Shown here one piece after another: positions 5,639 to 23,707 of a stretch of 44,519 bases of DNA (the stretch's first letter is position 1; each line of letters begins with the position of its first letter). Origin of the DNA: Coprothermobacterota bacterium. GTDB lineage: Bacteria; Caldisericota; JANLFM01. The DNA lies in NCBI GenBank assembly GCA_026389425.1, contig JAPLHW010000257.1:1-44519 (forward strand), in the 5' to 3' direction. The position numbers and the translations under genes were made by a program. The notes beneath the pieces were generated by a model that was not told the DNA's origin, ran no database searches, and worked only from the letters and a program-made list of their open reading frames with translations.

Positions 5639-6752
5639 ATTCCAATTTGCATTCAAGTTGACATTGTGCTATCACCTCGCCATGGAGGTATGCCATGGCC
5701 AGACAGAACCAAATCAGCATGGAAGACCTACAAAGAGCCAAGCAGTTGCGCGATCAAGCCACCACGGCAGCAGAGTATCGCAAGGCCCTTTCTGTGATAC
5801 TGACCGCGGAACTCGGCATGGATGCCGAACAGATCGCGGAGTTGCTGGGAACCAGTCGACGGACTGTTTTTCGTGATCGTGTCAGTATCCACAGCCAAGG
5901 CGACACTCCAAAGAACTGTTGGGGCGGCCGCCGTCATTGTGCGATGAGCATCGCAGAGGAAGATCAGTTCCTTGCTCAATGGATCGATAAGGCCATCATC
6001 GGTGGAGTTCTGACGGTTCCGCCCATTCATGCCGCCTTGGTGAAACGTTTGGGTCGAGACATCCCCATGTCAACAACCTATCGGTTATTGGCTCGTCATG
6101 GTTGGCGCAAGGTGCAACCAGATACCAAGCACCCCAAGAGCGATCCTGCCTTGCAGGACGAATTCAAAAAAAACTCCCCGAAGCTGTGGAAGCCGCCTGC
6201 CTGAAAAACGAAGATCAGCTTCCGCTGCGGTTGATCTTTCAGGATGAAGCCCGCTTTGGGAGGATCAGTGATCCCCGTTCATGTTGGGCGCCTGCTCCTC
6301 ATCGGCCGGTGGTTAATCTGGCTCTGGTTCGGGAGTTCCGGTACGAATATGCAGCGGTCAGCCCTTGGGATGGCAGTCTCGATTTCATGACTGCTGAGAA
6401 GATGAATACGAAAACCATGTCCCGCTTCTTGGAGCAAGTCAGCCAAGCGCACCAAGACCAGTTCATCGTCATGGTGGTGGACGGAGCGTCATCCCACAGA
6501 AGCAAAGAGCTTGAGATTCCCAAGAAGGGGTCGCTTGTTCGACTGCCGCCCTATTCACCGGAGCTGAATCCGGCGGAGCAGATATGGAACCTGCTCAGAC
6601 GCAACTACTTCGCCAATCGCGTCTTTGGTTCCCTGGATGCTGCTACCGCGCAAGCCGAATCTGGCTTGGCAGAGATGGCGGCAGATAAGCTGTCAATCCG
6701 GCAACTGACCAACTGGCCGTGGATTAGTGCCATCTTGAAAACGTAATGGAAT
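5639..6752 (+). mobile_element. IS630-family insertion sequence (about 1.1 kb)
   Basis: Imperfect terminal inverted repeats ATTCCAATTTGCATTCAAG (5639-5657) and CTTGAAAACGTAATGGAAT (6734-6752), 14/19 matching. They enclose a two-frame DDE transposase. Confidence 0.7.
5695..6746 (+). CDS. IS630-family transposase (two frames joined by -1 slip at an A8 run, 6166-6173)
   Basis: ORF 5695..6204 is the HTH part; ORF 6102..6746 is the DDE part (QDEARFG, VVDGASSHRS, LPPYSPELNPAEQIWNLLRR). The second frame is -1 relative to the first, overlapping at TTCAAAAAAAAC. Confidence 0.8.
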
Positions 6753-7042
6753 CAGCATTTTCGCCATTTTGGAGTGAGCGGAGGAGTGTACGCCGATGTG
6801 GCGGGCTTCTTCCAAGTCGCTGGGGATGGCACTTGGTTGTTTCGAACCGATTGGCAGCGTAATCCCTATCCAGCTATTCTCTTGATGGGAATCGATCTTG
6901 ACACCGTAGCTGGACACCACCGGCAATCAGCGTGATCCATCACGATTCTCACCCGCATCTGACTCAGCTCCCTAATTAAACAACAAGCCAAAATACGCTG
7001 CCTTGGGCTATGTGGCACGGGCAGTCATCCTCACAAAAATAC

Positions 7043-7079
7043 GTTTCAGTCCCCTTATTAGCGGGGATGTGGATGCAAC
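7043..7079 (+). repeat. solitary CRISPR-repeat-like 37-mer
   Basis: GTTTCAGTCCCCTTATTAGCGGGGATGTGGATGCAAC: GTTTCA 5' end, internal CCCC/GGGG hairpin, ...GCAAC 3' end. It lies 21 nt from the IS3 left end. No second convincing copy and no cas genes in the window. Confidence 0.25.
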
Positions 7080-7158
7080 CATAGACTGAAACCCTCCCAT
7101 TGGACACTCCAGGTTAGGAGAACCATCCACCGGACCGACGCTTAGAATAGAGGCAACG

Positions 7159-7512
7159 ATGAGAAACCAACGAACCTTCAGCATCGAGTTCAAGCGCCAA
7201 GTGATCGAGGAATGGCTCAGCGGAACCAGCAGCCTAGCCCAACTCTCCCGCCGCCATGCCATCGCCCCCAGCCTTCTCTATCACTGGAAGGAACGATACA
7301 TCCGAGGGAAGCTTTCCAATGAGCCTACCGAGTCAGGAGCTCTCCAAGCCCGCGTTGAGAAGTTGGAGAGGATGGTCGGCAGGCTGACCCTGGAGAATGA
7401 GTTCTTAAAAAAGGGGCTCTCCAGAGCCCTCTCCCCATCGAAGAGAAACGTCAGCTCATCGCTTCCTCCCGCCAACAACTCCCCGGTAAAACAGGGCAAG
7501 GATGCCGATTGA
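7159..7512 (+). CDS. IS3-family transposase OrfA (HTH)
   Basis: MRNQRTFSIEFKRQVIEEWL...LLYHWKERY plus leucine zipper LERMVGRLTLENEFLKK. Slippery TTAAAAAAG at about 7405. Confidence 0.8.
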   Translation: MRNQRTFSIEFKRQVIEEWLSGTSSLAQLSRRHAIAPSLLYHWKERYIRGKLSNEPTESGALQARVEKLERMVGRLTLENEFLKKGLSRALSPSKRNVSSSLPPANNSPVKQGKDAD

Positions 7513-8330
7513 TGAGCCTGGCCCGCAGCACCTTCTACGCCAAGAGCAAAGTGAATCTCCCACGACTCAAGGAGGATGCTGATCTACAGGACTCGATCGA
7601 GCGGATCGTCCTGGCTTATCCCTGATATGGCTATCGCCTGGTGACGCATCAGCTTTAAAGAGAAAGCTCCAGGGTCAATCGCAAATGGGTTCTGCGGGTC
7701 ATGAAAACTAGCGATCTGCTCTATCGAGCAGCGCGGCCTTGGCGGAGGACCATCAACAGTGACCACGTCTTTCCTATCTACGCCAACCTACTCCACAATG
7801 TCCTGGTCACTTCTCCCGACCAGACCTGGGTTTCTGACTTGACCTATATCCGTATCGAGACTGGTTTTGTTTACCTGGCAGTGATCCTCGATGCTTTCTC
7901 CCGAGTGGGGATTGGTTATACCCTCTCTACTCGCCGCTTAGATACCAGTCTAGCCAAGGCAGCGCTGGAAATGGCCCTCAGAGAACGGAAGCCAAAACCT
8001 GGCTGTATTCTTACCACTCGGATCAGGGGGTGCAATATGCCAGCGCCGACTATGTGCAAACCCTAAAAGATCATAGCTATAGGATCAGTATGTCCCACAA
8101 GGGCAATCCCTGTGACGACGCCTTGGTGGAGAGCTTCTTCGAGACCCTCAAGCAGGAAGAGTTTTACCTGACGGAATACCAACCGATTCATGACCTGCGA
8201 GACCGGCTTCCCCGTTTTATCGAGGAGGTCTACAATCGGAAAAGACTCCCTCTTCGCTGAGGAATTTACCACCGAGAGAGTTCGAATCTACCCGGAACCT
8301 GGAAGACAACGCTTGGCGGGAGGGGTGCAC
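7405..8330 (+). pseudogene. IS3-family transposase OrfB (DDE integrase core), disrupted
   Basis: Recognisable WVSDLTYIRIETGFVYLAVILDAFSR, HSDQGVQYAS and SMSHKGNPCDDALVESFFETLK. There are in-frame stops (AYP*YGYR at about 7622, QL*RE at about 7657) and at least two frameshifts (about 8030 and 8255). Confidence 0.8.
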
Positions 8331-8619
8331 TCTCCTAACCCAAAGTGTCCAGTCCTAAGGGTGCAGTCCAGATTCCTTTCACTCTTCAGAGCTTAGTGAT
8401 TTCTTCTTTGCTGACCTCGACTACTCTTGGGATGCCTATATTCATGCATGACGCCTTATCAAAAAGGTGTGCGGGAGAAGTCTGCTTGAATTATGTTTAA
8501 AATGCTTTCTTAACAACTGACCCGATAAAAGGGTGAACTTTTCTAAAAAGGGCCGCAGGCACTCCACCTCCTTTTCCCAACCGCATCGCTAGCCTTGCTT
8601 TTCGATGCATAACATCCCC

Positions 8620-8650
8620 TTGACAAGCAAAAACAGCCCCCCCCATACTT
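8620..8650 (+). promoter_or_regulatory. candidate sigma70-like promoter upstream of the 8930 operon
   Basis: TTGACA (8620-8625), 18-nt spacer, CATACT (8644-8649). It would give a leader of about 230 nt. Confidence 0.3.
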
Positions 8651-8885
8651 CGATCTATCGAAACCACTACCTTATCGAAAAAACCATCCCGTTGCTGCCA
8701 TGGGCACAACCAGTGGTAGTGATGTTTTCGTAGCAGATTTTTCGTGGCGAAAGTACCTGGATTGAAGGTCGCAGATTGCGATAGGATAGATGCAGCTACA
8801 GCTGTAATCTTCTTATCTCAATACGGATCTTGCCTCAGCAGGAGTAGATTAACTTAATTGAGGCCAATGTGTTTAAGGAGTGGGC

Positions 8886-8933
8886 ATGACCGGTAGGCGG
8901 ACTGGGCTGGGGAAAGAAAGCATCCGATCATGA
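8886..8933 (+). CDS. possible 15-codon upstream ORF (MTGRRTGLGKESIRS) coupled to the 630-aa gene
   Basis: ATG 8886 lies 5 nt after a strong SD (AAGGAG). Its TGA overlaps ATG 8930 as ATGA, while ATG 8930 has no good SD of its own. Confidence 0.25.
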   Translation: MTGRRTGLGKESIRS

Positions 8934-10822
8934 AACGATTGCCCATGTTAACCCTCGCTCTCACTAGCAGGGCTAAGGTTCAAAGGATTTATGCTCCCAC
9001 GCCATGGTGGCAGCATGGAAAGCCGATCGAAGACATGCAGTTGAATGAGGCCCTTGCGGTACTCCAGGCCGCAAGGTCGTGCGATATTTGCGCTATATCA
9101 ATAACAGGGGGCGATCCGTTCGCGGTTCCGGCTCTGTTGATGCCAATTCTTAAGGAGATCTCCCAGTCGACGACTGCATGGGTATCTGTTTCGATCCAAA
9201 CGTTCGGTGTATATGCTGTCACAGATCAGATATGGGAATATCTTTGTCAATGCGGCCCCGCCCTTACACTAGTTATTGAACTAGACACGATGGACTCGGC
9301 AACGTATAAGACGATTTACGGCAAGGACGCATTGAAATCGGTTCAAACATTCATTGATAATGCACGTATGCGAAACATCCACGTCAGGATCAGAACGGTC
9401 TTGACTTCCCTCAACAAAGATGCAATCACTCATATTGTCCAGTATGCGAAGGAAAAAGACTGTGACATGTTGCTCTGCGACCTCGCCACTATTATGGGAA
9501 AACGAGAACCGGTTGATTTGTTTATTCCCATCGCAACTGTCCAAGCGATAGTCACACAGAATCTCCAACCCGCAGGCTTCACGGCGAATCCCGGCGGGTT
9601 CGGCCTTCCGATCCAGATGTGGCATCTTTCGGGAAACAGATTACTTGGTCTACAGGCATCATCTTCTTCACCCCTGTATCATCCTGCATGTGCCATGTGT
9701 CAGCAGATGTGCGCAAACGGTGGTTACCCGCTCCTCATCCTGCCAGGCATGTATGTACACCTATGCAACTATAATAGCAACCATGTTGTCCCTCTAGGTG
9801 ACAATACGATCAAGAATCTCAGCCGCGTCCTCTCGGGTTTTTTAGGCCCATTTTCTACTGATACCACCTCAGAAGACAGACGCGGCGGCGGCATTCCGTC
9901 GGGTGCAACACTGCATGAACTGATCAGTCCCGTCGATCAAAACAACCAACAGCTGAAGTTCGCTGCTGATGCAATCGATCTCTCGATAGACAAAGAGTAC
10001 CGAGTGCTTAGTCCCTGGAGGCTTGGCCGGGGTATCGACGCATGGAATCTCACTCGTTGCTCCATCAGAACCCAGGATCGGATCTGGCCACTTCGAAAGA
10101 TGCCCTTATCCGGCATATGGGTTAAACCACACACAGTAGTTTACAGTGTCTCAAGAGAAACAATCACAGTCCCATCCGGGTATATCGGTTTGGTGCTCGG
10201 TCGAGCGACTTGGGCACGACTTGGTCTTCAGGTGTGTTGCGACGTAGCCAAGATTCAGTCTGGCCGAACAGGTCGCGTCCAGTTCCACCTAACGAACAAT
10301 AACAGAATGGCAATTCGTATACTTCCGTACATGTTCATCGCCCAGATCGTGTTCTTCCCGGTAACTGACGCTTATCCATTAAAAGGGGAACAGTACAACG
10401 AAGACGAAGGAGTTTACTCACCGGTGAAGGGACTCAATCTGCAACGCGAGATCGGTCCTTCCGTTCAATTTGGACGATTGATAGCAATCGAAAAAACCGG
10501 GAAAAAAAATATACTCCCTGCCCTGCTCCAAGGGGAGAACGGATCAGTAGATATTTTGAAATTGGCAGAAAGATTCGGATTGCTCAGGCACAGCAGTAGA
10601 ATGTCGGCAGCGAAAAAAAAGACATTGGCGAATCTGACCCGCGATTTAATTGGCCCAATAGTCGGTTTATTTGGCGGAATGGTAGTCTGGTTCCGAACAA
10701 ACCTCCTGTGGGCCGGTATCGTCGCATTTGTTATCATCACGGTGGTGCTTATAGTGGTTATAGTGATTTATTGGAAAACCTCAAACGTCCAAGACGACAA
10801 AGGTGACAAGAATGCTTCATGA
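8930..10822 (+). CDS. fusion protein: radical-SAM-like domain lacking the CxxxCxxC triad + dCTP-deaminase/dUTPase-fold domain + C-terminal transmembrane anchor
   Basis: Residues about 5-200 align by eye to MoaA-type radical SAM cores, but the cluster loop reads LTSRAKVQRIYAP instead of ITDxCNxRCxYCxP; also ISITGGDPF and VIELDTMDSATYKTIYGKD. Residues about 420-490 (VPSGYIGLVLGRATWARLGLQV...GRVQFHLTNNN...ILPYMFIAQIVFFPV) align to E. coli Dcd 99-163. The C-terminus LLWAGIVAFVIITVVLIVVIVIYW is a TM helix. Confidence 0.7.
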   Translation: MKRLPMLTLALTSRAKVQRIYAPTPWWQHGKPIEDMQLNEALAVLQAARSCDICAISITGGDPFAVPALLMPILKEISQSTTAWVSVSIQTFGVYAVTDQIWEYLCQCGPALTLVIELDTMDSATYKTIYGKDALKSVQTFIDNARMRNIHVRIRTVLTSLNKDAITHIVQYAKEKDCDMLLCDLATIMGKREPVDLFIPIATVQAIVTQNLQPAGFTANPGGFGLPIQMWHLSGNRLLGLQASSSSPLYHPACAMCQQMCANGGYPLLILPGMYVHLCNYNSNHVVPLGDNTIKNLSRVLSGFLGPFSTDTTSEDRRGGGIPSGATLHELISPVDQNNQQLKFAADAIDLSIDKEYRVLSPWRLGRGIDAWNLTRCSIRTQDRIWPLRKMPLSGIWVKPHTVVYSVSRETITVPSGYIGLVLGRATWARLGLQVCCDVAKIQSGRTGRVQFHLTNNNRMAIRILPYMFIAQIVFFPVTDAYPLKGEQYNEDEGVYSPVKGLNLQREIGPSVQFGRLIAIEKTGKKNILPALLQGENGSVDILKLAERFGLLRHSSRMSAAKKKTLANLTRDLIGPIVGLFGGMVVWFRTNLLWAGIVAFVIITVVLIVVIVIYWKTSNVQDDKGDKNAS

Positions 10823-11999
10823 CAGTCAACATCTTCACTCAGCGCAAATAGAATTGCATACTTCGCGCCAATATGGTTTGGAGGTGGATCCAAAATTCTC
10901 TGCGCACTTTGCTCATCTCAAGCAGGTGTTCCTTTATGTCACAGACAAGTGCGATCTTCGCTGCCATCACTGTCTCTACAAAGCGAGTCTGATACTCGAA
11001 CGTGAAATGGAGGCTGCCATCGCGGCTCGTCTGCTTGTAACATTTCGCTCAATGGGTGCCTTCAAGTTGACCTTCATCGGTGGTGAAGCCACTAGATATG
11101 GAATCGAATCTAGCCACAGACCTCTACTAGATCTCATACAACTCGCCCACGAGATAGGTTACAACTACATCCGGTTGGACACAAACGGCCATTTTCCTTC
11201 TAATCTTCTGGGAATGCCAGAGTTCCGCCTGCTGGATGAACTTTCTATTAGTATCGACGGCTACAACGCAGCGACCAACGATTCACTCCGCGGTGATGGC
11301 GCGTTTGAGATCACGGTTAACCAGCTACGCCAAGCTGTTAAGGCGGGCTACAGAGTCCATGTTACAGCGTGTGCCACAAGACAGAACGTCATCATCGCAG
11401 GCTCAGTGGCGAACTTTCTCGAACATATGATTCGTTTCTGTGAAGATGAGAAGATTGAGGCGGTCAATTTTCATGGTGTTTTTCGTATGGGGGTACCCAT
11501 GGATACATGGACTGAGGGAACGCATCTCGAACCCCAGGAATGGCTGCGGGGCTATGAGACTGTGGCAAAGAGAATCCAGGCCGGCATATACTCGATACCG
11601 GTACGTTTACCCAGGCACCTCATCGAGAGAGCCCTATTTGAAAGAGCACCCCAGAAATACGGCTACTGCCCATGTAAACTCGGCGAGAGAGTACTTGTGC
11701 ATCCAGATGGGATCATCCGCATTTGTTCCTCACTTCTATGCACACCCTATGGCGTCGCCCGTTACACACCGGAGCGGATTATTTGGGAGACTGTTACGAA
11801 CGAACTCTACCGCCACGACATGAATTCACATACTCCATGCACCAACCAACAAGCCATGTATACGCCCGAACTTGTGCCTCTGTGCTTCTCCTTCAAACCG
11901 GGGCAAACAGAACCGGTCTGGCGAGAACTTGCTCATGAAGGTGTCGTGTCAACCGGACTAGACCCCATTCCTCAACCCGTTTGCGACCAGAGAAAATAG
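10803..11999 (+). CDS. radical SAM enzyme with Cys-rich (SPASM/twitch-like) C-terminal domain
   Basis: Intact VTDKCDLRCHHC (CxxxCxxC), FIGGEA SAM-binding motif and IRLDTNGH. Seven C-terminal Cys (YGYCPCKLG...RICSSLLC...PCTN...LCFS...VCD). The ORF-track start is GTG 10803; ATG 10812 after AAAGGTGA is equally likely. Overlaps the upstream gene by 11-20 nt. Confidence 0.8.
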   Translation: MTRMLHDSQHLHSAQIELHTSRQYGLEVDPKFSAHFAHLKQVFLYVTDKCDLRCHHCLYKASLILEREMEAAIAARLLVTFRSMGAFKLTFIGGEATRYGIESSHRPLLDLIQLAHEIGYNYIRLDTNGHFPSNLLGMPEFRLLDELSISIDGYNAATNDSLRGDGAFEITVNQLRQAVKAGYRVHVTACATRQNVIIAGSVANFLEHMIRFCEDEKIEAVNFHGVFRMGVPMDTWTEGTHLEPQEWLRGYETVAKRIQAGIYSIPVRLPRHLIERALFERAPQKYGYCPCKLGERVLVHPDGIIRICSSLLCTPYGVARYTPERIIWETVTNELYRHDMNSHTPCTNQQAMYTPELVPLCFSFKPGQTEPVWRELAHEGVVSTGLDPIPQPVCDQRK

Positions 12000-12020
12000 A
12001 TCCATGCCGACAGGCATCTG

Positions 12021-12962
12021 ATGATTGGTTCTAATGTCTCTACCGTTGGTGGGATCGATAAGGGTTTCATACAGGCCAAAGAATGGGGCTTAGAGTGCAT
12101 TCAGATATACATAACCCCCTCTCGCACTTGGACAGTCCCCAAACGTGATGCAAAGTCTATTCATAACTTCCTCCAAGCTTGGCAAGAAAGCGGCGGCGTC
12201 GCGGTCGTGGGTCACGTGCCCTTCCTCGTCAACCTTGGATCGCCGAACCCTGTGTTGTTCCACAAGTCCGTCGACAGATTGGTCTGTGAGATCAACAGCG
12301 CGGAAGAACTCCGGATTCGTAACATCATAATGCACCCCGGAGCATGTGGCGGGAGACCCATCGAACAGGCTCTGGATCAGGTTATAGTCGGGCTGAACGA
12401 GGCAATCAGCAGGACCAAATGTTCATCGACGAACATTCTTCTAGAAACGATGGCAGGACAAGGAAGAACCCTCGGCGCTACCTTTGAGCAATTTGCCTAC
12501 ATAACTGAGCACATCGAAGACGGAGAACGCATCGGCGTGTGTTGCGACACATGCCACCTTTATGCATCTGGATACGACATCAGAGGGAGAACCGGTTTCT
12601 CAAAGGTAATGCATGAAATTGGGAACGTACTCGGGATGACAAAGATCAAGGCATTTCACCTCAATGATTCCAAACACCCCCTCGGGTCCCACAAAGACAA
12701 ACACTGCACAATTGGTAAGGGATTCCTCGGCATTGAGGTCTTTCAGGCCATAGTCCAGTCAGAGGCGTTGAGTGTCCTTCCCATGGTGATTGAGAACCCT
12801 GATAGGGATTGCGGTAGCTACAACGACGTTACGCTCTTGAAGGAACTCCGGGAGTCGAGAGACCGCGTTAAAGACCCAGAACCTACCGAGAGAACAAGTT
12901 TACAGACAGAACTCCTGTTAGATGATGCGTGCCGCTTTCGCCGGCGCTTACCGCGCTCATAG
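12021..12962 (+). CDS. nfo: endonuclease IV (AP endonuclease, Nfo family)
   Basis: Aligns by eye with E. coli Nfo with all metal-ligand positions present: GHVPFLVNL, IMHPG, LETMAGQG, CCDTCH, FHLND, DKH, VIEN. Lies 21 nt after the radical SAM gene. Confidence 0.85.
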   Translation: MIGSNVSTVGGIDKGFIQAKEWGLECIQIYITPSRTWTVPKRDAKSIHNFLQAWQESGGVAVVGHVPFLVNLGSPNPVLFHKSVDRLVCEINSAEELRIRNIIMHPGACGGRPIEQALDQVIVGLNEAISRTKCSSTNILLETMAGQGRTLGATFEQFAYITEHIEDGERIGVCCDTCHLYASGYDIRGRTGFSKVMHEIGNVLGMTKIKAFHLNDSKHPLGSHKDKHCTIGKGFLGIEVFQAIVQSEALSVLPMVIENPDRDCGSYNDVTLLKELRESRDRVKDPEPTERTSLQTELLLDDACRFRRRLPRS

Positions 12963-13014
12963 ACCCACCCCAAGCCCAAAACGAAAACCAACCTAACCCT
13001 AAGCAATCTCCCTT

Positions 13015-13887
13015 CTACAAGAAAAGATTTGTCTGTTCTGGTTCATCCCACGGGGAACGAAATCCCCAACCCTCAAACAAGTCGGTCAGTTGCCTCAGAT
13101 CGGGAGTGCGTAATTTCAGTCCATCCAAGTCCAGTTGCAGGTTCAGATTGGTCCGAAGTGCAATCAAGAAACGATTCGTTCGCAATTGATCGAAACTGGC
13201 TTGTATGGCATCCCGCAGTTTCGGTCGTGGGATCACGCTTGCCTTCGCTAGAAGATTCTCGATGTCACCAAATTCCCGGAGTAATGCGGCTGCCGTCTTC
13301 TCACCGACTCCAGACACACCTGGAATGTTGTCAACCATGTCGCCAACCAAACTGAGCAAATCAACCATCTGTGCAGGCGGCACGCCGTAACGCTCAGAGA
13401 CGGCACTGACATCAAGCGCCACATTCCCTTTGCGCTCGGAACGAACCCAACGAATTTGAGGGCCAACGAGTTGGGCGAAATCCTTATCATTACTCGCGAT
13501 ATAGACTCTTGCGCCACGCTTGGCACCTTGGAAGGCCAAGGTCGCGACAACATCGTCAGCCTCTTCTCCTTGTCGCTCCACTATGGGAAAACGCAGTGCC
13601 TCCAGGAACTCTCGAATCTTAGGCAACTGTGCCAACATCTCCACTGGAGCAGGGGGTCGGTCCGCTTTGTAACAAGGAAAAGCAGCCAACCGTTGAACGG
13701 GTGGACCATGGTCAAACACTGCCGCTCCGTGCGTAGGTTGAAACTCAATTAACCATTTACGCACCATCCGGGTGAACCCATAGACAGCATTCACCGGTTC
13801 TCCACTCGGACTAGAGAGTGTCGGCAGGGCGAAGTAAGCTCGATATGTCTGATGATTCGCATCGATCAATAGTAAGGTTTTTTCCAT
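13015..13887 (-). CDS. 5'-3' exonuclease / flap endonuclease (Pol I N-terminal-domain-like, stand-alone)
   Basis: LLLIDANHQTYRAYFA, GEPVNAVYGF, EADDVVATL, IASNDKDFAQLV and the H3TH motif LVGDMVDNIPGVSGVGEKTAAALL. Start is ATG 13887 (MEKTLLLID) or 13905. Confidence 0.85.
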   Translation of the reverse strand: MEKTLLLIDANHQTYRAYFALPTLSSPSGEPVNAVYGFTRMVRKWLIEFQPTHGAAVFDHGPPVQRLAAFPCYKADRPPAPVEMLAQLPKIREFLEALRFPIVERQGEEADDVVATLAFQGAKRGARVYIASNDKDFAQLVGPQIRWVRSERKGNVALDVSAVSERYGVPPAQMVDLLSLVGDMVDNIPGVSGVGEKTAAALLREFGDIENLLAKASVIPRPKLRDAIQASFDQLRTNRFLIALRTNLNLQLDLDGLKLRTPDLRQLTDLFEGWGFRSPWDEPEQTNLFL

Positions 13888-14247
13888 GAGTGTGTAGACT
13901 ATCATACGACGTGTGGGTGGACAACAGATTTATAGATGCACCGGTAGGGTAGGCAACACATTTGTCAATAAGTGATTATTGTAAAGGTCAACACCTTCAC
14001 GAGCTCTGTTTCTGGTCTTGTGTTCATTTTTCGAGGCGTAGAACAGTGTGCAAGCGGTAAGACGTGGATCATCGAGGTGAATAAGACATAGTTTGAGGTA
14101 ACTTCTCCGATTCACGATCGCGTCGGTAATAGCATTCATTTTCCCATTTTCAATAATGGATATGGTCTGAATACACTTCCTCACGGATCTTGCCGGTAGC
14201 CGTGCATAATGCCTTGTTTCTTTAATAGATTTCTACCCCAAAAGGAT

Positions 14248-14264
14248 CTGGAGATACTCTCCAG
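14248..14264 (-). terminator. weak hairpin downstream of hsdR
   Basis: CTGGAGA-tac-TCTCCAG (7-bp stem), about 65 nt after the hsdR stop. On the minus strand it is followed by ATCCTTTTGG. Confidence 0.3.
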
Positions 14265-14327
14265 ACAACTTCCGACTTAAATAAAGCGCAGCGGAATCTC
14301 TATCTAGTGTTGCATTATCTGGTGGCT

Positions 14328-17300
14328 CTATGCCGCTGCGTAGACGCTACGGCCGGCGCCGTAGTAGGCGTCATAGACGTGTTGAAAGATAGCGGTGGTC
14401 TTTTGCTTGAACAATTCCGACGTGTAGGCTCTCGGCAAGCCCTGGTCCAGCATTTTCTCGATGGTTACCCGCACCTCGGCGCGGGCTTGCTGGCGTTTGC
14501 GCCAATCCAACACCAGTTTCCCCGCTTTAAGCGTGGCCAATAGCTTTCGGGCCGTGGCCTTCACCTTTTCCCGGTCCATCTCGCTCATCTCAATCTGTGG
14601 CTTGGTCAAGAGGTCAAAGAGCGCCAGCTCTTCTTCGTTTAATTGTTCGCCCACGCCCCGCTTCTCTTCTTCATTCAGGCTCTGGGCGAAGGCCGTCAGT
14701 TGCTGGAAGAACTCCTCAGCGTTGAGGCTGCCTGCGTTGTAAGCGTCGATCATCGCCTGGAAGCGCTCCAGGTAATCCATGCGAGTACGGTTGAGCCGCA
14801 CCATGGTCATCAGCTTCTGCGCCACTGCGCCCTTCAGTCTTTCGTTGAACGTGCGCTTGTGGCCTGTCTTGAATTTCTCGGCCAGCTTCTCGAAGTCAAT
14901 TTTGCTCAGGTCAATCCACCGCTCGTCGCTGTAGGGTACGCCCGCCTCCCGGATGATGTATCCTTCCGTGGCGATGGAGCGATCGAGTAGCTCTTCCGCC
15001 TGCTGCATGACCTGAGAGATGTCCACCGGGGGCGTGAGGGCGCGGATTTTGTCAGCGATTACCAGCAAGAGCTTTACCTCAGCAGCGAAAGACTGGGCGT
15101 CCGAGTCGGGCAGTACAGCTTGGTAGAGCCGCTGCACAGTATTGGCCTGATCAAGATAGCGGCGTTTGATCTCCTCGGACCCCACCAATGCCTCCACGGC
15201 GTCATCGAGCAGCCCGACGCGCATAAATCCATTAGCGGTCTGGATAGCTGTAAGTTTCACCCCTTGTTCCCGACACATGCCCCGTGTTTCTTCCAACGCC
15301 TGCCGCAACGCCGCCACTAATGCGGACTTATCTTCCACCGGCTTGTTGCCGCCGCCGCCCGCGCCATAGATGGCCAGCGCCCGTTCCAGGTTGCGGAACA
15401 CCCCGGCATAGTCCACGATCAGGCCGCTCACCTTGCCGGGATAGACCCGGTTAGCTCGGGCGATGGTCTGCATCAATGTGTGGTTGCGCATCGGCTTGTC
15501 GAGGTAAAGGGTGGAACAGCTCGGCACATCGAAGCCGGTCATCCACATGGCGCAGACAAACACCAGCCGGAAGGGGTCGTCCGGGTCCTTGAACTTCGTC
15601 TCCAGGTCTTCCTCCACCATGCGCTTGCGGTGCGGGCGAATATCCAACCCCTTCTTTTTCATCTCGTCGATTTCGTTCTGGCCCTGAGAAACCACCACCG
15701 CCATATCGGCCTCTTTCATCCGGGCGATGCGCTCTTCAAGCTCTCGCCGGATATCGCCGACGACACCAGCACGTTCCAGCTGTGAGGTCGCGATCTTGGC
15801 CCTCCAGTGCTTCTTCACCTTGTCGTACATGCGGATGGCCGTGGCCTTGTCGATGCACACCACCATGGCCTTGCCCTGAAAACCTCGCCCGGTGAAATGC
15901 TCCACCAGGTCTTTGGTCACCGCCTCCAACCGCTCATCGCGCGTGATCAGGTGGTACTCGCGGGCGAACTCCCGCTCCAACCTCGTTTCCTGTGCCTCGT
16001 CCAGTTCCGCCTCTTCCAGCAGGCGCTCCATGTCCTGGTTGAGGTTCTCGTTGACCAGTTGCAGTTCCGGGATGCGATTCTCGTAGTAGAGCGGCACCGT
16101 GGCGCCGTCGACAACCGATTGCTGGAAATCGTAGACGCTGGTGTAGTCGCCGAAGACCTGGCGGGTCTTCTCCTCGCCCACGATCAGAGGTGTACCGGTA
16201 AAAGCCAGAAAAGCGGCGTTGGGCAGAGCCGTGCGCATGTTCAGCGCCAGGGTGTCGTACTGGCTGCGATGGGCCTCGTCAGTGATAACGATGATGTCCC
16301 GCCGCTCGGAGAGCACCGGGTGCACCTCGCCCTGCTCGGTGCGGAACTTGTGGATCAGGGTGAAAACATAGCGGTGATCCTCCCTGAGCAACTGGCGCAA
16401 GTGCCTGCTGCTTTCCGCCTGGGTGTGACCTTCGGTTACCACTCCCGCTGATGCGAAGTGCTTGTAGATCTGCCCGTCCAGCTCCTGCCGGTCGGTGATC
16501 ACCACAAAGGTCCAGTTTCCTGGCACTTTGCGCAGCACCTTCTGGGCGAAGAACATCATGGAGACACTCTTCCCGCTGCCTTGAGTATGCCAGAACACCC
16601 CCAGCTTACCCTCCCGCTGGCGGATGTCGGCCAGGGCCTCCAGCGCGTTATTGACGCCCAGGTACTGGTGATTCTTGGCCATCAGCTTGATCAGTCCTCC
16701 GGGCGCTTCCTGGAACAGGGTGAAGTTCTCCACCAGGTCCAACAACCGCTTCGGTTCGCAGACGCGCAACATGGTCTGCAGTGAGACCCGGCCTGTTTCG
16801 TCCTCGCTGTCTACCTTCTTCCACTCGGCGAAGTGTTCCCATCCCGCAGTGATGCTGCCCATCCGGCTCTGGCTGCCGTTGGAGACGATGACCAAGGCGT
16901 TGGGCCAGAAAAGCTGGGGCACGGTGTCCTTGTAGTCGCGTATATTGCCGGTGAAAGCGGTCTCCAGGTGGCGGTGGGCAGCCTTCAGTTCGATCAGGAC
17001 AAGGGGTAGGCCGTTGACGAATCCCACCAAGTCGGCACGGCGGGTGTGCATCTCACCGGTGACCCAGAACTGCGAGCAGAATAGAAAGTCGTTGTTGGCC
17101 GGGTGATCCCAATCGATCACCCGCACCACCTCCACCGTCTCCTCATCCCCTTCGGGATCGGGAATGGATACGCGCACGCCGTTCTTCATCAGGTGGTAGA
17201 CCTCACGATTGGCGGCCGCTGCACTCATGCGCGAGCGGTCGCGGATCAGCTCCTCGATGGCCTGGCGAATCGCATCAGACGGGGTATCCGGGTTCAGCCG

Positions 17301-17480
17301 CTGCAGAGCCGGACGAAGGCGGGCGGTGAGGATCACCTCAGCCTTGGTCTCACGGCCCAGCGCGCTGGCGCCGTGGTCGAACTCGTGATAGGCGTTGAGC
17401 GTCTCCCAGCCCAGCTCTGCCAGCAAAGCGATGGCCGGTTGCTCGATCAAGGCGTCTTCGCTGTAGCTGCTGGGAGTCAT
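14328..17480 (-). CDS. hsdR: Type I restriction enzyme, R subunit
   Basis: 1050 aa. N-terminus SEDALIEQPAIALLAELGWE, Walker A TQGSGKS, DEAH box ITDEAHRSQ, motif VI QTIARANR. Confidence 0.95.
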   Translation of the reverse strand: MTPSSYSEDALIEQPAIALLAELGWETLNAYHEFDHGASALGRETKAEVILTARLRPALQRLNPDTPSDAIRQAIEELIRDRSRMSAAAANREVYHLMKNGVRVSIPDPEGDEETVEVVRVIDWDHPANNDFLFCSQFWVTGEMHTRRADLVGFVNGLPLVLIELKAAHRHLETAFTGNIRDYKDTVPQLFWPNALVIVSNGSQSRMGSITAGWEHFAEWKKVDSEDETGRVSLQTMLRVCEPKRLLDLVENFTLFQEAPGGLIKLMAKNHQYLGVNNALEALADIRQREGKLGVFWHTQGSGKSVSMMFFAQKVLRKVPGNWTFVVITDRQELDGQIYKHFASAGVVTEGHTQAESSRHLRQLLREDHRYVFTLIHKFRTEQGEVHPVLSERRDIIVITDEAHRSQYDTLALNMRTALPNAAFLAFTGTPLIVGEEKTRQVFGDYTSVYDFQQSVVDGATVPLYYENRIPELQLVNENLNQDMERLLEEAELDEAQETRLEREFAREYHLITRDERLEAVTKDLVEHFTGRGFQGKAMVVCIDKATAIRMYDKVKKHWRAKIATSQLERAGVVGDIRRELEERIARMKEADMAVVVSQGQNEIDEMKKKGLDIRPHRKRMVEEDLETKFKDPDDPFRLVFVCAMWMTGFDVPSCSTLYLDKPMRNHTLMQTIARANRVYPGKVSGLIVDYAGVFRNLERALAIYGAGGGGNKPVEDKSALVAALRQALEETRGMCREQGVKLTAIQTANGFMRVGLLDDAVEALVGSEEIKRRYLDQANTVQRLYQAVLPDSDAQSFAAEVKLLLVIADKIRALTPPVDISQVMQQAEELLDRSIATEGYIIREAGVPYSDERWIDLSKIDFEKLAEKFKTGHKRTFNERLKGAVAQKLMTMVRLNRTRMDYLERFQAMIDAYNAGSLNAEEFFQQLTAFAQSLNEEEKRGVGEQLNEEELALFDLLTKPQIEMSEMDREKVKATARKLLATLKAGKLVLDWRKRQQARAEVRVTIEKMLDQGLPRAYTSELFKQKTTAIFQHVYDAYYGAGRSVYAAA

Positions 17481-18217
17481 ACTTGCGGCTCCTTTCCGCT
17501 CTTGTTAAGGACTGCACGACCAGCCGGGGTGGTGCGGTATCGCTGCTCCGGGCTGCGAGGCTTATCGGGGAAGGTCATTTCGACAAGGCCCATCTCTAGG
17601 GCTGGTTTGAGGTAGCGCTCTTCGAAATTTGCTCTTCCTTTTAACTCCAACGCCGCCTGGATCTCCACGCGCGTCATCTCTCTCGACATGATTTCCAGCA
17701 TCTTCAAGACCTCGACAGTAACTTGCCCTGCGACTTGCCCTGCGACTTGTGGGGTACTTGGGGGGTACATGTGCGGCACATGTGCGGTGGATTCCAGCGT
17801 CTCATGAGCCTTTTCATGGGCTTGAACTTGGTGCTGACTTGGTGCCAATTTGGTGCCAATTTGTGCGGTCTTCGGTTCCTCTAGGGCTCCCGCCTGCGCC
17901 CGCACCTCCGGATTCGGATGGAAGATCGCAGTGAAAAAGCCGTTTTCCTCGAAGATCGGCGCCGGACAGCGTTGCTCGCGCGCCTCCTCGCGCATGCGCT
18001 TGATCCCGGTTCCGGCCTTCTCGATGAAAGTGATGCGGTGGAGCAGGTCAGCAATAAGGGCATTGCGGCGGATGCTCTTCCGGCCGAGGTCGGAAAACTT
18101 CATCCCCTTGGGCAGGCCGCCGGGGCTGGATATCTCGATCCTATCTGTGTAGATCTCAACAAAAACATTGGCGCCTTCACCCTCCTGGAGCAGGATGTCG
18201 AGATCAGTAGCTTTCAT
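17477..18217 (-). CDS. HATPase_c_4 / winged-helix regulator-like protein (the family often mis-named RecG-like), apparently shortened
   Basis: IEISSPGGLPKGMKFSDLGRKSIRRNALIADLLHRITFIEKAGTGIKRMREE plus a C-terminal wHTH-like region. Strong SD AAGGAGG before ATG 18217 and an ATGA-type 4-nt overlap with the hsdR start. Lacks the N-terminal AlbA_2 domain expected in full-length relatives. Confidence 0.65.
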   Translation of the reverse strand: MKATDLDILLQEGEGANVFVEIYTDRIEISSPGGLPKGMKFSDLGRKSIRRNALIADLLHRITFIEKAGTGIKRMREEAREQRCPAPIFEENGFFTAIFHPNPEVRAQAGALEEPKTAQIGTKLAPSQHQVQAHEKAHETLESTAHVPHMYPPSTPQVAGQVAGQVTVEVLKMLEIMSREMTRVEIQAALELKGRANFEERYLKPALEMGLVEMTFPDKPRSPEQRYRTTPAGRAVLNKSGKEPQV

Positions 18218-18317
18218 ACTTCGGCCTCCTTGGGAGTATTCAAGCCTACTCGCCCTCGATACTGGAAAGCCAAGCGAAATGTCTGCGAGCTTCGTTCATT
18301 CCACTTCCGCCGCTCCT

Positions 18318-18341
18318 GGGATCGCCGCACCCCAGTGCGGC
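18318..18341 (+). repeat. REP-like element, copy 2 (GGGATCGCCGCACCCCAGTGCGGC)
   Basis: One mismatch to consensus; 35 nt downstream of the RAYT stop. Confidence 0.7.
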
Positions 18342-18375
18342 ATCCTCATTTGGATTTCTTCTCATCCTTTCCATT

Positions 18376-19038
18376 TTAATCTTTCGCACTACTCCACAGC
18401 CAATCCTCTGGTTTTGTTACCAACCCGGCTTTCACGGGGTTCATGACAATGTATTCTCGCGTTGCCATAAAGTGACCTTCGTCTCGGATGAAACGATCCC
18501 AGTACTCCCGATGCCAAATCCGGGACCGCCGCACCCCAGTGCGGCTCATATTCTCATTGATCCACCGCGCCGTATAGTTCTTCCACGACAATACGATCTT
18601 CCCCAAAGGGATACCCTCGCGCGGTTCAATCATTACATGACAATGGTTAGGCATCACAACCCACTGCAACAGGCGGTAACGCTCCCCGTCAAACCGAAGC
18701 CACGTATCTACCACACAAGCGGCGACATCAGGTTTTCGTAAAACGCAGGAACCATGACCTGCATCCAAAAAGGCCTCGATCTTCCGTCGCAGTTGCGTCT
18801 CGCGCGCATCGCGATTCCGGACTTCTTCCTTCAATTCTGCTTGCATTTGTTCCAATGCCGATTGTGGTAGTGAATCAGCCAGACGGTAGGTGATGTGTTG
18901 GATAGCATGTGCTGTATCGAAGTGGGGCAAATAGCCGCGGGAGTACCACCCTCGGGCTGGTTGCTCCCCAGAACGGTAGGCTTCCGTCTGTTCACTGCTG
19001 TTGCCGCACTGGGGTGCGGCGGTCCCAGGGACGGTCAT
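18376..19038 (-). CDS. REP-associated tyrosine transposase (RAYT, IS200/IS605-like Y1 HUH enzyme)
   Basis: SRGYLPHFD, HUH motif MPNHCHVMI, catalytic Tyr region TREYIVMNPVKAGLV. Flanked by inverted REP copies at 18318 and 19003. ATG 19038 overlaps the hsdS stop (ATGA). Confidence 0.85.
   Translation of the reverse strand: MTVPGTAAPQCGNSSEQTEAYRSGEQPARGWYSRGYLPHFDTAHAIQHITYRLADSLPQSALEQMQAELKEEVRNRDARETQLRRKIEAFLDAGHGSCVLRKPDVAACVVDTWLRFDGERYRLLQWVVMPNHCHVMIEPREGIPLGKIVLSWKNYTARWINENMSRTGVRRSRIWHREYWDRFIRDEGHFMATREYIVMNPVKAGLVTKPEDWLWSSAKD
18522..18545 (+). repeat. REP-like element, copy 3, inside the RAYT coding sequence
   Basis: Exact 24-nt consensus; translated on the minus strand as ...SRTGVRRSRI... 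Confidence 0.7.
19003..19026 (-). repeat. REP-like element, copy 4, encoding the RAYT N-terminus
   Basis: GCCGCACTGGGGTGCGGCGGTCCC is the reverse complement of the consensus. It encodes residues GTAAPQCG of MTVPGTAAPQCGNSS. Confidence 0.7.
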
Positions 19039-20216
19039 GTAATCTCCTCGGGAATGGTGATTTCCAGTTCCGACACATCCACCTCGCCGGAGATGAGCCG
19101 GGGCAGCAGCAGGTCGCGAGTACGGCGGAGGGTGGTGTTTTTACGAATCAGAGAAATGACTAGATCCGACGCGGGCGTAGCCAGAGAATCAAAAGCTTCT
19201 GCAATAGAATCCGGTGGCGCAACAGTTGGCTGAGCCAAGAAGTCTCCAGGCTTGAGTCGTTTATGGCTAGTGGATGTGCCGTCTGCGCGCCCTGCAAGTT
19301 TTTCTACCATTTCCGGATTATTGAATAGCCCATAATAAAATGCCGTTGAGTACTTCTTCGGCTCAAGAATAAGATACTCGGTTGAGGCTATGGAACGGAG
19401 GTCGTTGCTCGGTCTTGGTAGCCATACCCTGGGGATATGCGGGTTCAGTTTCGGAACCAATACACAATCAATCGGGACTTCATATTTCCCACTTCTAATG
19501 GTCTGACCTTTTTCAACCGCAGGAAGTTTGCCTGAATCGAATGCAGGAAAACTGAAGTGTTCGAAAAGTTCATTTGGAAAATTCTGCGGTTGAACGCTTT
19601 TTCGACAGAGATTGACAATATCCCCCAACGCAGCTACTTCCCAGCCCTCCGGGATGAGGCCGAGGGGGGAATCGGTGAAGCGGGCGTGCTGGTGGCCGGG
19701 GAAGCGGAACTTGACGAACCACTCGCGGTAGAGGTTCTGCGCCATCTTCTCCAGAATTTTAATCCGCCGCAGGTTGTTCTCGATCAGGTCGTCGTAGGCC
19801 GAGAGAATCGCCGCGATTTTGGCTTGTACTGGTAAACTCGGGAAACGTATCCTCAAACCATAGAGGTAGTTGCGATTAAGTGAAGGCTGTGCACTGCCAG
19901 AATTGAAAGACGCGAAATCAATACTATCGAGTAGGTAATAAACAAAACGCGGATGATTGTCCTTGAAGTCCTTCACATAAAGAACAGTATTATGAGGCCA
20001 ATAGGCGCGTGATGTGTAGTGCGCCTTGCCAAAAGAAGCACCGCTTCTCCCAATTACAACACCGGGGCCACCAGTTTTAGCAGAATCATGGTAACCATTG
20101 ATTCCAGCAGAACCAAGAACTGGAATAGTCCCTGGTCGCCTCTGCTGTTCTGGCAAGTCGTGCCCTCTCTGTAGAGTTATGACCTCACCGAGAGTAATGT
20201 CTCGCCAACTCATCAC
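19035..20216 (-). CDS. hsdS: Type I R-M specificity subunit
   Basis: Two target-recognition domains separated by the conserved spacer LPVQAKIAAILSAYDDLIENNLRRIKILEKMAQNLYREWFVKFRFPG. C-terminal NTTLRRTRDLLLPRLISGEVDV. Start is GTG 20216 or ATG 20213. Confidence 0.9.
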   Translation of the reverse strand: MMSWRDITLGEVITLQRGHDLPEQQRRPGTIPVLGSAGINGYHDSAKTGGPGVVIGRSGASFGKAHYTSRAYWPHNTVLYVKDFKDNHPRFVYYLLDSIDFASFNSGSAQPSLNRNYLYGLRIRFPSLPVQAKIAAILSAYDDLIENNLRRIKILEKMAQNLYREWFVKFRFPGHQHARFTDSPLGLIPEGWEVAALGDIVNLCRKSVQPQNFPNELFEHFSFPAFDSGKLPAVEKGQTIRSGKYEVPIDCVLVPKLNPHIPRVWLPRPSNDLRSIASTEYLILEPKKYSTAFYYGLFNNPEMVEKLAGRADGTSTSHKRLKPGDFLAQPTVAPPDSIAEAFDSLATPASDLVISLIRKNTTLRRTRDLLLPRLISGEVDVSELEITIPEEIT

Positions 20217-20262
20217 TTCCCCTCCAGCAGCTTCACCACATTCTCGGCGATCTGTTCTTCCC
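20213..20262 (-). repeat. duplicate of the last ~50 nt of hsdM, fused to the YhcG-like ORF
   Basis: Aligns at about 80% identity with 21346..21395. It encodes ...EQIAENVVKLLEGK versus the HsdM C-terminus ...[14 protein letters not shown]. Confidence 0.7.
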
Positions 20263-22947: not shown

Positions 22948-23101
22948 GGCTTCTTCCTCCCCGGTTCTTCATGGATTCTCTTCTGCGTCTCCTCCGGATC
23001 GCGAACGCTCACCAAAGTGCAAACTCTGCGCTCATCACATGATACCAGTTTAGGCAGAAAGGAAACCCGGACTTCAAAGCCATGGTGTCGTTTCTTCCAA
23101 G

Positions 23102-23707
23102 TCAAGGACGAGTGGATGATTCATCGAACATTCCCTTCTTTTCGGCCAGGCCCTCGATCATCTCCCGGGCTTTCTTAGCATTATCAGGATCAGGGAGAGT
23201 GCGATAATTGGTTCGCAGCGCCTCAATCTCTTTCCTGAAACCAGGAGGCAAGGCCGCTTCTTCCTGAGCTCGCCTCAGCTCCTGTTCATACATGCGCATG
23301 AACTGGGGACGCGCGTGGGCTGGATCAGCCATGGCAAATTCGCGGACCCCGAAGTGCTCCAGGGTGCGTCGGACAAGGGGGTGCAAGTCCTCGTATCCTT
23401 CCGCTTCCCAGTGATCATCGAAGAAGACAGCATCGCCGATGCACCTCGAGGCTTTTCCATAGGCCTCGGCAGGGGTGAGGTTGCGTTCCTGGACGATTTC
23501 CAGGGCGGCTCCTCTGATCTCGGCGTAAGAAGGGGAGAAAGGTTTGCCAGTAAAGAGCAACTTCTGGACTGCTATCTTGGCTACCTCAAGGGGTATCTCC
23601 TCCAGCACTTTGGCCCAGATAGCCAGGGTGCCTGTGCTCATCTCCGGGGCATTGTTCCAGGCCTGAGCGATCAAGGTCAGCAGATCCCTCACTTCTTGTT
23701 TAGTCAT
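23102..23707 (-). CDS. phage-type replicative helicase loader/inhibitor-like protein (G39P-like N-terminus)
   Basis: MTKQEVRDLLTLIAQAWNN...WAKVLEEIPLEVAKIAVQKLLFTGKPFSPSYAEIRG resembles the G40P loader/inhibitor family. 4-nt overlap with the upstream gene. Confidence 0.55.
   Translation of the reverse strand: MTKQEVRDLLTLIAQAWNNAPEMSTGTLAIWAKVLEEIPLEVAKIAVQKLLFTGKPFSPSYAEIRGAALEIVQERNLTPAEAYGKASRCIGDAVFFDDHWEAEGYEDLHPLVRRTLEHFGVREFAMADPAHARPQFMRMYEQELRRAQEEAALPPGFRKEIEALRTNYRTLPDPDNAKKAREMIEGLAEKKGMFDESSTRP

Follow-up and report, generated by a model that had tools for sequence, protein, structure and literature searches.

A membrane-anchored fusion of cluster-less radical SAM-like and Dcd-like domains in a three-gene module of a Coprothermobacterota bacterium

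The fusion protein and the folds of its two domains

The window analyzed here, a 44,519-nucleotide stretch (positions 1 to 44,519) of contig JAPLHW010000257.1 from a Coprothermobacterota bacterium (assembly GCA_026389425.1), encodes a 630-residue protein that joins a radical S-adenosylmethionine (SAM)-like domain to a domain of the dCTP deaminase (Dcd)/dUTPase fold and ends in a membrane anchor. Both domains retain their folds and lack the canonical catalytic residues. The gene overlaps that of an active radical SAM enzyme, which is followed in turn by a gene for endonuclease IV (Nfo), and the three genes together make up a module (Table 1).

The start site of the fusion is shared with two orthologues, P0002 (630 residues) and P0123 (631 residues), which have the same N terminus and near-identical lengths. 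The AlphaFold2 model considered below was built from a 128-sequence alignment and has a mean predicted local distance difference test score (pLDDT) of 82.6; an earlier run on a two-sequence alignment gave a pLDDT of 43 and was discarded. In the 128-sequence alignment, MAFFT had put the auxiliary Cys residues of relatives with a single domain out of place, below the Dcd domain, and those rows were ignored; the comparison of auxiliary Cys residues is based instead on a dedicated alignment of the N-terminal domain. Beyond the Dcd-like domain, the predicted helical linker leads into the C-terminal anchor, and a hydrophobic segment equivalent to residues 592–615 is found by Kyte-Doolittle analysis in all five full-length relatives. 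This agrees with the membrane tether proposed in a first-pass annotation, which had been made from the letters of this DNA alone. Counts in a promoter and terminator scan were not above those in shuffled sequence.

The Pfam Radical_SAM model (PF04055) matches residues 32–171 of the fusion weakly, with an expect value (E) of 0.0018 and 18.9 bits against a gathering cutoff of 29.5; the orthologue P0123 passes this cutoff with 44.1 bits. NCBIfam MoaA models match at about E 1e-11, TIGR02666 scoring 43.6 bits, far under its cutoff of 284.05, and the PADLOC model for prokaryotic viperins (pVips) covers the barrel core only (E 4e-4), with the thresholds of the viperin models not reached. Searched against the Protein Data Bank (PDB), a family profile of the N-terminal domain finds Staphylococcus aureus MoaA (1TV7/2FB2) as its best match at about E 1e-9, with viperins next. 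Foldseek, given the same domain of the AlphaFold2 model, likewise returns MoaA (E 3.6e-11 over 317 columns), viperins with target template modeling (TM) scores of 0.67–0.73, and also SuiB. As modeled, the domain has the partial (β/α)6 triosephosphate isomerase (TIM) barrel of the radical SAM superfamily.

For the second domain, Pfam DCD (PF22769) matches residues 331–476 with E 1.8e-13 and 51.3 bits, above its cutoff of 27, and NCBIfam dCTP_deam (TIGR02274) matches residues 394–496 with E 3e-14 and 53 bits, under its cutoff of 92.8. HMMER aligns residues 396–480 without gaps to residues 81–165 of Escherichia coli Dcd (E 2.8e-7), and Foldseek matches the C-terminal domain of the model to Dcd and bifunctional Dcd-Dut structures (E 7e-12; target TM 0.69–0.80). 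Both fold assignments of the first-pass annotation are thus supported by sequence profiles and by the structural model. By the tests that define them, the protein is not a radical SAM enzyme, a MoaA, a viperin, a Dcd, or a dUTPase; the fold-level Pfam DCD model is the only one that accepts it.

Table 1. Features of the fusion, its module, and the surrounding island (window coordinates)
Feature	Position	Strand	Basis or detail
Fusion ORF (open reading frame), 630 residues: radical SAM-like domain, Dcd-like domain, helical linker, membrane anchor	8930..10822	+	ORF list, domain matches, AlphaFold2, Foldseek
Pseudo-radical SAM domain, MoaA/viperin fold, residues 1–315	8930..9874	+	Family profile, Foldseek
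Remnant of CX3CX2C loop, residues 7–25, LTLALTSRAKVQRIYAPTP; Cys positions are Ala15, Arg19, Ala22	8948..9004	+	Alignments with active relatives
Retained GG(D/E)P SAM-binding-type motif, G60 G61 D62 P63	9107..9118	+	Alignment
Retained auxiliary-cluster (twitch/MoaA-type) Cys motif: C254, C257, C261, C279	9689..9766	+	Aligns with CxxCx4Cx~17C of active relatives
Dcd/dUTPase-fold domain without canonical catalytic residues, residues 331–496	9920..10417	+	Pfam, NCBIfam, PDB, Foldseek
GRATWARLG, equivalent to E. coli Dcd G109–G117 (Ser111 to Ala426; Arg115 is Arg430)	10199..10225	+	Alignments
Gln443 (Dcd Asp128/dUTPase motif III Asp position) to His453 (Dcd Glu138 position)	10256..10288	+	Position mapping
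Predicted helical linker, residues 504–572	10439..10645	+	AlphaFold2 secondary structure; poorly conserved
C-terminal membrane anchor: weakly hydrophobic 573–588, then strong transmembrane helix 592–615	10646..10774	+	Kyte-Doolittle peak 3.45
Active radical SAM partner, 398 residues, overlapping the 3' end of the fusion gene	10803..11999	+	Pfam Radical_SAM E 3.3e-10
Intact CX3CX2C motif of the partner, CDLRCHHC	10950..10973	+	Sequence, homologue alignment
Endonuclease IV (Nfo), 313 residues, third module gene	12021..12962	+	NCBIfam TIGR00587 nfo, 261 bits, cutoff 129.65
Stand-alone 5'-3' exonuclease (Pol I N-terminal type)	13015-13905	-	
Low-GC island holding the fusion module	5695-24708		GC content 0.49–0.54, flanks 0.58–0.63
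IS630-like insertion sequence ORFs (split)	5695-6746		
IS3-like ORFs (split)	7159-8260		
Type I restriction-modification operon hsdR, hsdS, hsdM	14328-22947	-	
Fic-like_C/HATPase_c_4 gene	17477-18217		
IS200-like Y1 transposase	18376-19038		
YhcG/DUF1016 PDDEXK nuclease	20213-21346		
Two adjacent ORFs at the island edge, 201 and 334 residues	23102-24708	-	No Pfam match

Catalytic residues lost and motifs retained

Alignment of the fusion to 17 active MoaA/viperin-like relatives, which carry the motif LTxxCNxxCxYCPPxGE, places the three Cys residues that would ligate the radical SAM cluster at Ala15, Arg19, and Ala22, and the 128-sequence alignment places them at the same residues. The landmarks ISITGGDPF (residues 56–64), VIELDTMDSATYK (115–127), and RIRTVLTS (153–160) line up with conserved motifs of the active relatives. 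Loss of the cluster ligands from an otherwise recognizable domain had been proposed in the first-pass annotation, and the two alignments agree on it. The same Cys loss is found in P0002, P0123, and the N-terminal fragment P0126; no family member has a Cys at any of the cluster positions, nor is there a substitute conserved three-Cys motif near the N terminus. Concealment of the cluster loop by a frameshift or an N-terminal truncation can be ruled out, because three orthologues start identically with the same Cys-less loop.

The description of the protein as a double pseudo-enzyme holds insofar as the canonical residues of both domains are absent from all orthologues, but the N-terminal domain does not appear to be simply dead. 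In the GG(D/E)P motif, Gly61 and Pro63 do not vary among family members and the 17 active relatives, and Cys178, Cys254, Cys261, and Cys279 are invariant in all three fusions. Because this motif and the four-Cys auxiliary motif are kept, the domain may still bind an iron-sulfur cluster, though it would be unable to cleave SAM. The auxiliary-Cys region has low confidence in the AlphaFold2 model, and we read it as a loop that probably needs its cofactor.

The nearest active relatives of this domain are found in contexts related to nucleotides or of the conflict type: one relative is a fusion with cyclase-like and TIR domains, and another is coupled to a HAD-nucleotidyltransferase, with a HerA-like gene adjoining. 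In P0132, a protein of 1111 residues from the representative search, a region like the PycC cyclase and a TIR domain share one chain with a MoaA-like radical SAM domain of the pseudo-domain's closest clade.

The HMMER mapping of the Dcd-like domain places Ser111, Arg115, Asp128, and Glu138 of E. coli Dcd at Ala426, Arg430, Gln443, and His453, respectively. This ungapped alignment upholds the substitutions read from the sequence at the outset (Ser111 to Ala, Glu138 to His, Arg115 kept). Orthologues share the losses. Across the five members that contain the domain, the Glu138 position is H/Q/Q/Q/A (Ala in P0125) and the Asp128 position is Gln in all, inside a conserved KIQ(S/A)(G/E)R motif; with Gln443 and its equivalents, the catalytic Asp of dUTPase (PF00692) motif III is absent family-wide. 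The Ser111 position is A/S/S/A/T, and the Arg115 position, R/F/R/R/R, is kept in four of the five. Other residues are kept: the equivalents of Arg110 and of Arg126 (Lys441) are invariant in the family, and the window protein has equivalents of Arg110, Arg115, Gly130, Gly133, and Asn141.

Departure from the canonical Dcd active site extends beyond the family. Among the 57 nearest Dcd-like proteins outside it, the canonical pair of Asp128 and Glu138 is present in only 5, and Gln occupies the Glu138 position in 37. C-terminal hydrophobic segments occur in 26 of the 57; 24 of these 26 are without the Glu, and none of the 5 proteins with the canonical pair has such a segment. On these counts, the union of a Glu-less Dcd-like domain with membrane helices is a recurrent architecture, belonging to a large non-canonical clade, much of it membrane-anchored, and the loss of the Glu is older than the fusion rather than recent. 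Full-text literature yielded no description of this Glu-less clade.

A tblastn search of plasmids with the Dcd-like membrane part and with the relative P0260 returned only canonical or Glu-retaining dcd genes. One gene annotated as dcd on plasmid pBq66S1MBa of Bradyrhizobium quebecense (L049, 4717-7648) has His at the Asp128 position and keeps Glu138; it is the last gene of a MerR-led operon with two hypothetical genes, flanked by patatin-like phospholipase, PLD-like, and transposase genes. At another locus (L045, 418-3374), the Gln-type Dcd-like protein P0153 lies between genes for a uracil phosphoribosyltransferase-like protein and a guanylate kinase on one side and a HAD hydrolase on the other, a further nucleotide-handling cluster around a Glu-less Dcd-like protein.

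Such a pattern of loss and retention could also reflect catalysis of a non-canonical kind, in which the four-Cys site would bind a [4Fe-4S] cluster for electron transfer or substrate binding on behalf of the partner, and the Gln/His-type pocket would catalyze a different reaction. The invariance of four Cys residues in the three fusions and the alignment of the auxiliary motif with active relatives are consistent with this idea, as are the strong conservation of KIQ(S/A)(G/E)R and the presence of Gln or His at position 453 in four of five members; the prevalence of Gln at the Glu138 position in a large clade may mean function rather than decay. However, position 453 is Ala in P0125, and the Ser111 and Arg115 positions vary. 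By established radical SAM chemistry, a protein without a CX3CX2C cluster does not cleave SAM reductively. According to PDB titles, Ala and Asp substitutions of Glu138 in E. coli Dcd have been crystallized as variant or mutant enzymes. Mutants of this kind are known to be inactive. Overall, we regard new chemistry in the fusion as rather improbable.

The family is very rare. An exhaustive search with a hidden Markov model (HMM) of 1.84 billion cluster representatives found six clusters, that of the window protein (P0001) included: the fusions P0002 and P0123, the stand-alone Dcd-like membrane proteins P0124 and P0125, and the fragment P0126 are the other members. The first match beyond the family has an E of 5e-22 and falls among generic MoaA-like and Dcd-like proteins. 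A scan of JGI metagenomes returned no further members, only a contig encoding P0125 again. Neither the partner nor the Dcd-like membrane protein had relatives in IMG/VR viral scans, so a phage origin is not supported. No description of the fusion or of its membrane anchoring was found in full-text literature.

Pairwise identity among the three fusions is 31–33% in the radical SAM-like domain and 41–46% in the Dcd-like domain, compared with 17–27% in the helical linker and 10–22% in the membrane anchor. Both disabled domains are under constraint, because they are better conserved than the linker and the anchor, and this pattern argues for selection on what would be non-catalytic functions. It also bears on whether the protein is a decaying relic of a once-active radical SAM/Dcd fusion, without a function of its own. 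Both domains are stripped of catalytic residues, and insertion sequence (IS) elements and frameshifted transposase genes surround the window locus, as decay would predict. Yet the 625–631-residue frame is intact in three lineages that are only 31–46% identical, each domain has conserved motifs, the order of the fusion and partner genes is maintained, and the predicted fold is confident. A relic is, on this evidence, hardly credible.

The module, its partner family, and its surroundings

The partner encoded next to the fusion has the cluster motif that the fusion lacks, and its Cys50, Cys54, and Cys57 do not vary among 30 homologues. The PDB entries that match it best are fungal viperin-like enzymes, MoaA, and viperin. 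Against the viperin model NF038283 it scores 38.9 bits and does not reach the cutoff of 180. A profile of the pseudo-domain aligns with that of the partner family at 95% probability over 239 columns, with a shared CxC...C twitch-like motif. The third gene product matches EndoIV in the PDB (1QTW) at E 2e-40, and the stretches that carry what we take to be the positions of the His/Glu/Asp metal ligands are conserved.

These genes recur together. The order Dcd-like membrane protein (fused or alone), radical SAM enzyme, Nfo occurs in four independent loci: the window and L046 have the fusion, and L011 and L012 have the stand-alone Dcd-like membrane protein. At L001, the fusion gene precedes a radical SAM gene that is cut by the contig end, so that a fusion or Dcd-membrane gene lies beside the partner in five independent loci, with genes overlapping or closely spaced. 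A partnership with the active radical SAM enzyme next door, as first suggested from the window alone, is therefore supported by conserved gene adjacency, and the endonuclease IV is a conserved third component that the first-pass annotation had overlooked. In this module the radical SAM-like domain can be absent, whereas the Dcd-like membrane protein, the active enzyme, and Nfo are constant. Downstream in the window, the stand-alone 5'-3' exonuclease gene is convergent on nfo; it probably lies outside the module, as nfo has no gene of this type after it in L046 or L011.

More than 340 homologues of the partner were found, with 44–60% identity. Thirty-one genome loci span Alphaproteobacteria, Methylococcaceae, Flavobacteriales, Clostridia, Nitrospirae, Acidobacteria, Chloroflexota, and Saccharibacteria, and include the archaea Iainarchaeum and Promethearchaeota. 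The radical SAM gene has a gene for either Nfo or an exonuclease III (ExoIII)-type nuclease (xth) within a few genes of it at about 30 of 44 loci; a full check of one of the latter nucleases gave 262 bits, where the xth cutoff is 99. ExoIII and EndoIV both have apurinic/apyrimidinic (AP)-endonuclease and 3'-diesterase activities. That non-homologous nucleases sharing these activities replace each other argues for a requirement of the system for AP-endonuclease activity. No description of a module of radical SAM enzyme and AP endonuclease was found in full-text literature.

The commonest subtype (L003 8001-12032, L006, L007, L013-L024) is a conserved four-gene operon for the radical SAM enzyme, a 288-residue protein, a tail-anchored alpha/beta-hydrolase, and bona fide exonuclease III. 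In the 288-residue protein, a CxHITGEMRALADPFHR motif is conserved and the C-terminal part weakly matches winged-helix regulators; it was rejected as a homologue of either fusion domain (hhalign probability <1%). With its hydrophobic C terminus, the alpha/beta-hydrolase is a recurring tail-anchored accessory protein. Among the neighbors in other subtypes (L022, L026, L028, L029-L032, L033, L040) are a thymidylate kinase together with HAD, CYTH, or a second radical SAM protein accompanied by HD, an alanyl-tRNA synthetase (AlaRS)-catalytic-domain-like protein, and an aminoglycoside phosphotransferase (APH)-like kinase; in L022 and L028, the thymidylate kinase gene adjoins that of the partner family. 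The second radical SAM protein of one subtype resembles the pseudo-domain weakly (74% probability over 83 columns), and with similarity this weak, a simple origin of the pseudo-domain as an inactivated second radical SAM protein is unsupported.

In the window, the module is held by a low-GC island that is flanked by housekeeping genes. Elements resembling IS630, IS3, and IS200 share the island with a type I restriction-modification operon, the hsd genes being interleaved with genes for a Fic-like protein, the IS200-like transposase, and a PDDEXK nuclease. Two adjacent ORFs lie at the island edge (Table 1). Comparable neighbors occur at other loci: a transposase and a DNA methyltransferase are near the fusion at L046, and a type I system adjoins the radical SAM operon at L007. 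At L012, a gene for a 196-residue helix-hairpin-helix (HhH)-type glycosylase (564-1154), which matches the PADLOC 'OGG' model at E 6e-38 and no Pfam family, is directly upstream of the three module genes. Against PADLOC-DB 2.0.0, the radical SAM proteins give only weak pVip matches, and Nfo, P0124, and the accessory proteins of other subtypes give none; the operon proteins of the commonest subtype likewise match no PADLOC model.

These surroundings, together with the recurrence of membrane segments on Glu-less Dcd-like proteins, invite comparison with the cyclic-oligonucleotide-based antiphage signaling system (CBASS) and the pyrimidine cyclase system for antiphage resistance (Pycsar). The fusion would then be a nucleotide-gated membrane effector, whose Dcd-like domain senses a product of the radical SAM enzyme or a phage-altered deoxynucleoside triphosphate and whose helices then disrupt the membrane. 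Such a role is consistent with the constancy of the Dcd-like membrane protein where the radical SAM-like domain is optional, with the tail-anchored alpha/beta-hydrolase that takes the equivalent place in the commonest other subtype, and with the position of the window locus beside a restriction-modification system and IS elements. However, one or two helices as poorly conserved as those of the anchor resemble a tether more than a pore, the conserved AP endonuclease is left without a role, and we know of no signaling nucleotide made by a radical SAM enzyme. An effector of this kind seems to us unlikely.

Possible function and comparison with known systems

We propose, with moderate confidence, that the fusion most likely binds nucleotides without catalysis and acts at the membrane as an adaptor or regulator of a viperin-like three-gene module. 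It would be a conserved accessory subunit, non-catalytic for both canonical reactions. The nucleotide-sensing or scaffolding role suggested in the first-pass annotation is plausible. The Dcd/dUTPase fold is normally an obligate trimer, and in the fusion it could provide an oligomeric binder of (deoxy)pyrimidine nucleotides, not a deaminase or a dUTPase. The cluster-less radical SAM-like domain might dock onto or regulate the active neighbor, possibly contributing an auxiliary iron-sulfur cluster, and the C-terminal helices would keep the assembly at the cytoplasmic membrane. The active enzyme would most likely carry out viperin-like radical chemistry, either on a nucleotide or on deoxyribose in DNA, and endonuclease IV could handle the resulting abasic or 3'-blocked DNA ends.

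Several observations weigh against this proposal. In two of the five loci (L011 and L012), the radical SAM-like domain is absent, and it is therefore not essential to the module. The deoxyribose-contacting Asp128 is replaced by Gln and Trp131 by Arg, and the C-terminal lid region is acidic; therefore, binding of a nucleoside triphosphate is not assured. As for antiviral function, a PADLOC scan of 36 loci matched only a few of 145 flanking proteins to defense models, and several loci of the partner family are among housekeeping genes. With few defense matches across the wider family and some loci in housekeeping surroundings, a role in defense is suggestive for the fusion-bearing subtype only.

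If the adaptor proposal is combined with the behavior of the partner family, a broader but more tentative picture emerges. The fusion could mark one subtype of an unrecognized system spread horizontally across bacteria and archaea, with examples that include genomes of the Candidate Phyla Radiation (CPR) among the former and Asgard and DPANN genomes among the latter. Its radical SAM enzyme might produce a deoxynucleotide that terminates chains or is otherwise toxic, or might inflict radical lesions on foreign DNA. The mechanism would depend on an AP endonuclease, with endonuclease IV and exonuclease III interchangeable in this role, perhaps protecting host DNA or turning lesions into breaks, and the double pseudo-enzyme would be the nucleotide-sensing control or effector subunit. 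We consider this scenario possible but doubtful as a whole.

The prospect that the module as a whole represents a system of a new kind is a real one. Should the adaptor proposal hold, two nucleotide-enzyme folds would have jointly become a membrane adaptor without catalysis, which would clearly exemplify pseudo-enzyme evolution, with testable features in the retained auxiliary cluster site and the conserved KIQ(S/A)(G/E)R motif. The association of a viperin/MoaA-like radical SAM family with both classical, non-homologous AP endonucleases, which is apparently undescribed, would hint at radical chemistry whose product reaches DNA, and could represent a new antiviral nucleotide pathway or a new route of enzymatic DNA damage or repair. 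At three genes and about 4 kb, the module is compact and small enough for direct cloning and testing.

Parts of this arrangement have counterparts elsewhere. TIGR04347 ('pseudo-SAM/SPASM'), considered here by its family name alone, is a precedent for a cluster-less radical SAM fold; the fusion does not match it, and only the active partner does so, weakly (31 bits against a cutoff of 525), so that clade and architecture differ. Staphylococcal phage dUTPases use a dUTPase-fold trimer as a nucleotide-dependent signaling switch, but they remain active, are soluble, and act on a repressor. The CBASS and Pycsar effectors Cap15 and PycTM place a cytoplasmic nucleotide-binding domain ahead of C-terminal membrane helices, beside a nucleotide-transforming enzyme, whereas the sensor fold of the fusion is unrelated and the module here has an AP endonuclease and no cyclase.

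The closer comparisons are with the enzymes whose folds the fusion shares. It resembles Dcd and bifunctional Dcd-Dut in fold and aligns with the E. coli Dcd core without gaps, but the fusion family has His, Gln, or Ala for Glu138, together with the replacements of Asp128 and Trp131, and the fusion has a radical SAM-like domain and a membrane anchor added on. MoaA, the GTP 3',8-cyclase, acts on a nucleoside triphosphate, and among solved structures it matches the N-terminal domain best; the two have in common the partial TIM barrel, the GGEP motif, and a C-terminal Cys motif, in the fusion one for a putative second cluster. The fusion differs from it in lacking the radical SAM cluster Cys residues, in having an auxiliary motif of four Cys, CX2CX3CX17C, where MoaA has CX2CX13C, and in having Thr8 at the position that alignment maps to the GTP-binding Arg17. 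Viperin and the pVips share the fold of the N-terminal domain, and viperin-like enzymes are among the best PDB sequence matches of the active partner. Both pVips and vertebrate viperin are linked to nucleotide kinases, as the partner family is to thymidylate kinase, and vertebrate viperin is also membrane-anchored. To our knowledge, viperins have neither an auxiliary-cluster domain nor a linked AP endonuclease, and, unlike viperin, the module here carries its anchor at the C terminus and on a catalytically disabled subunit.

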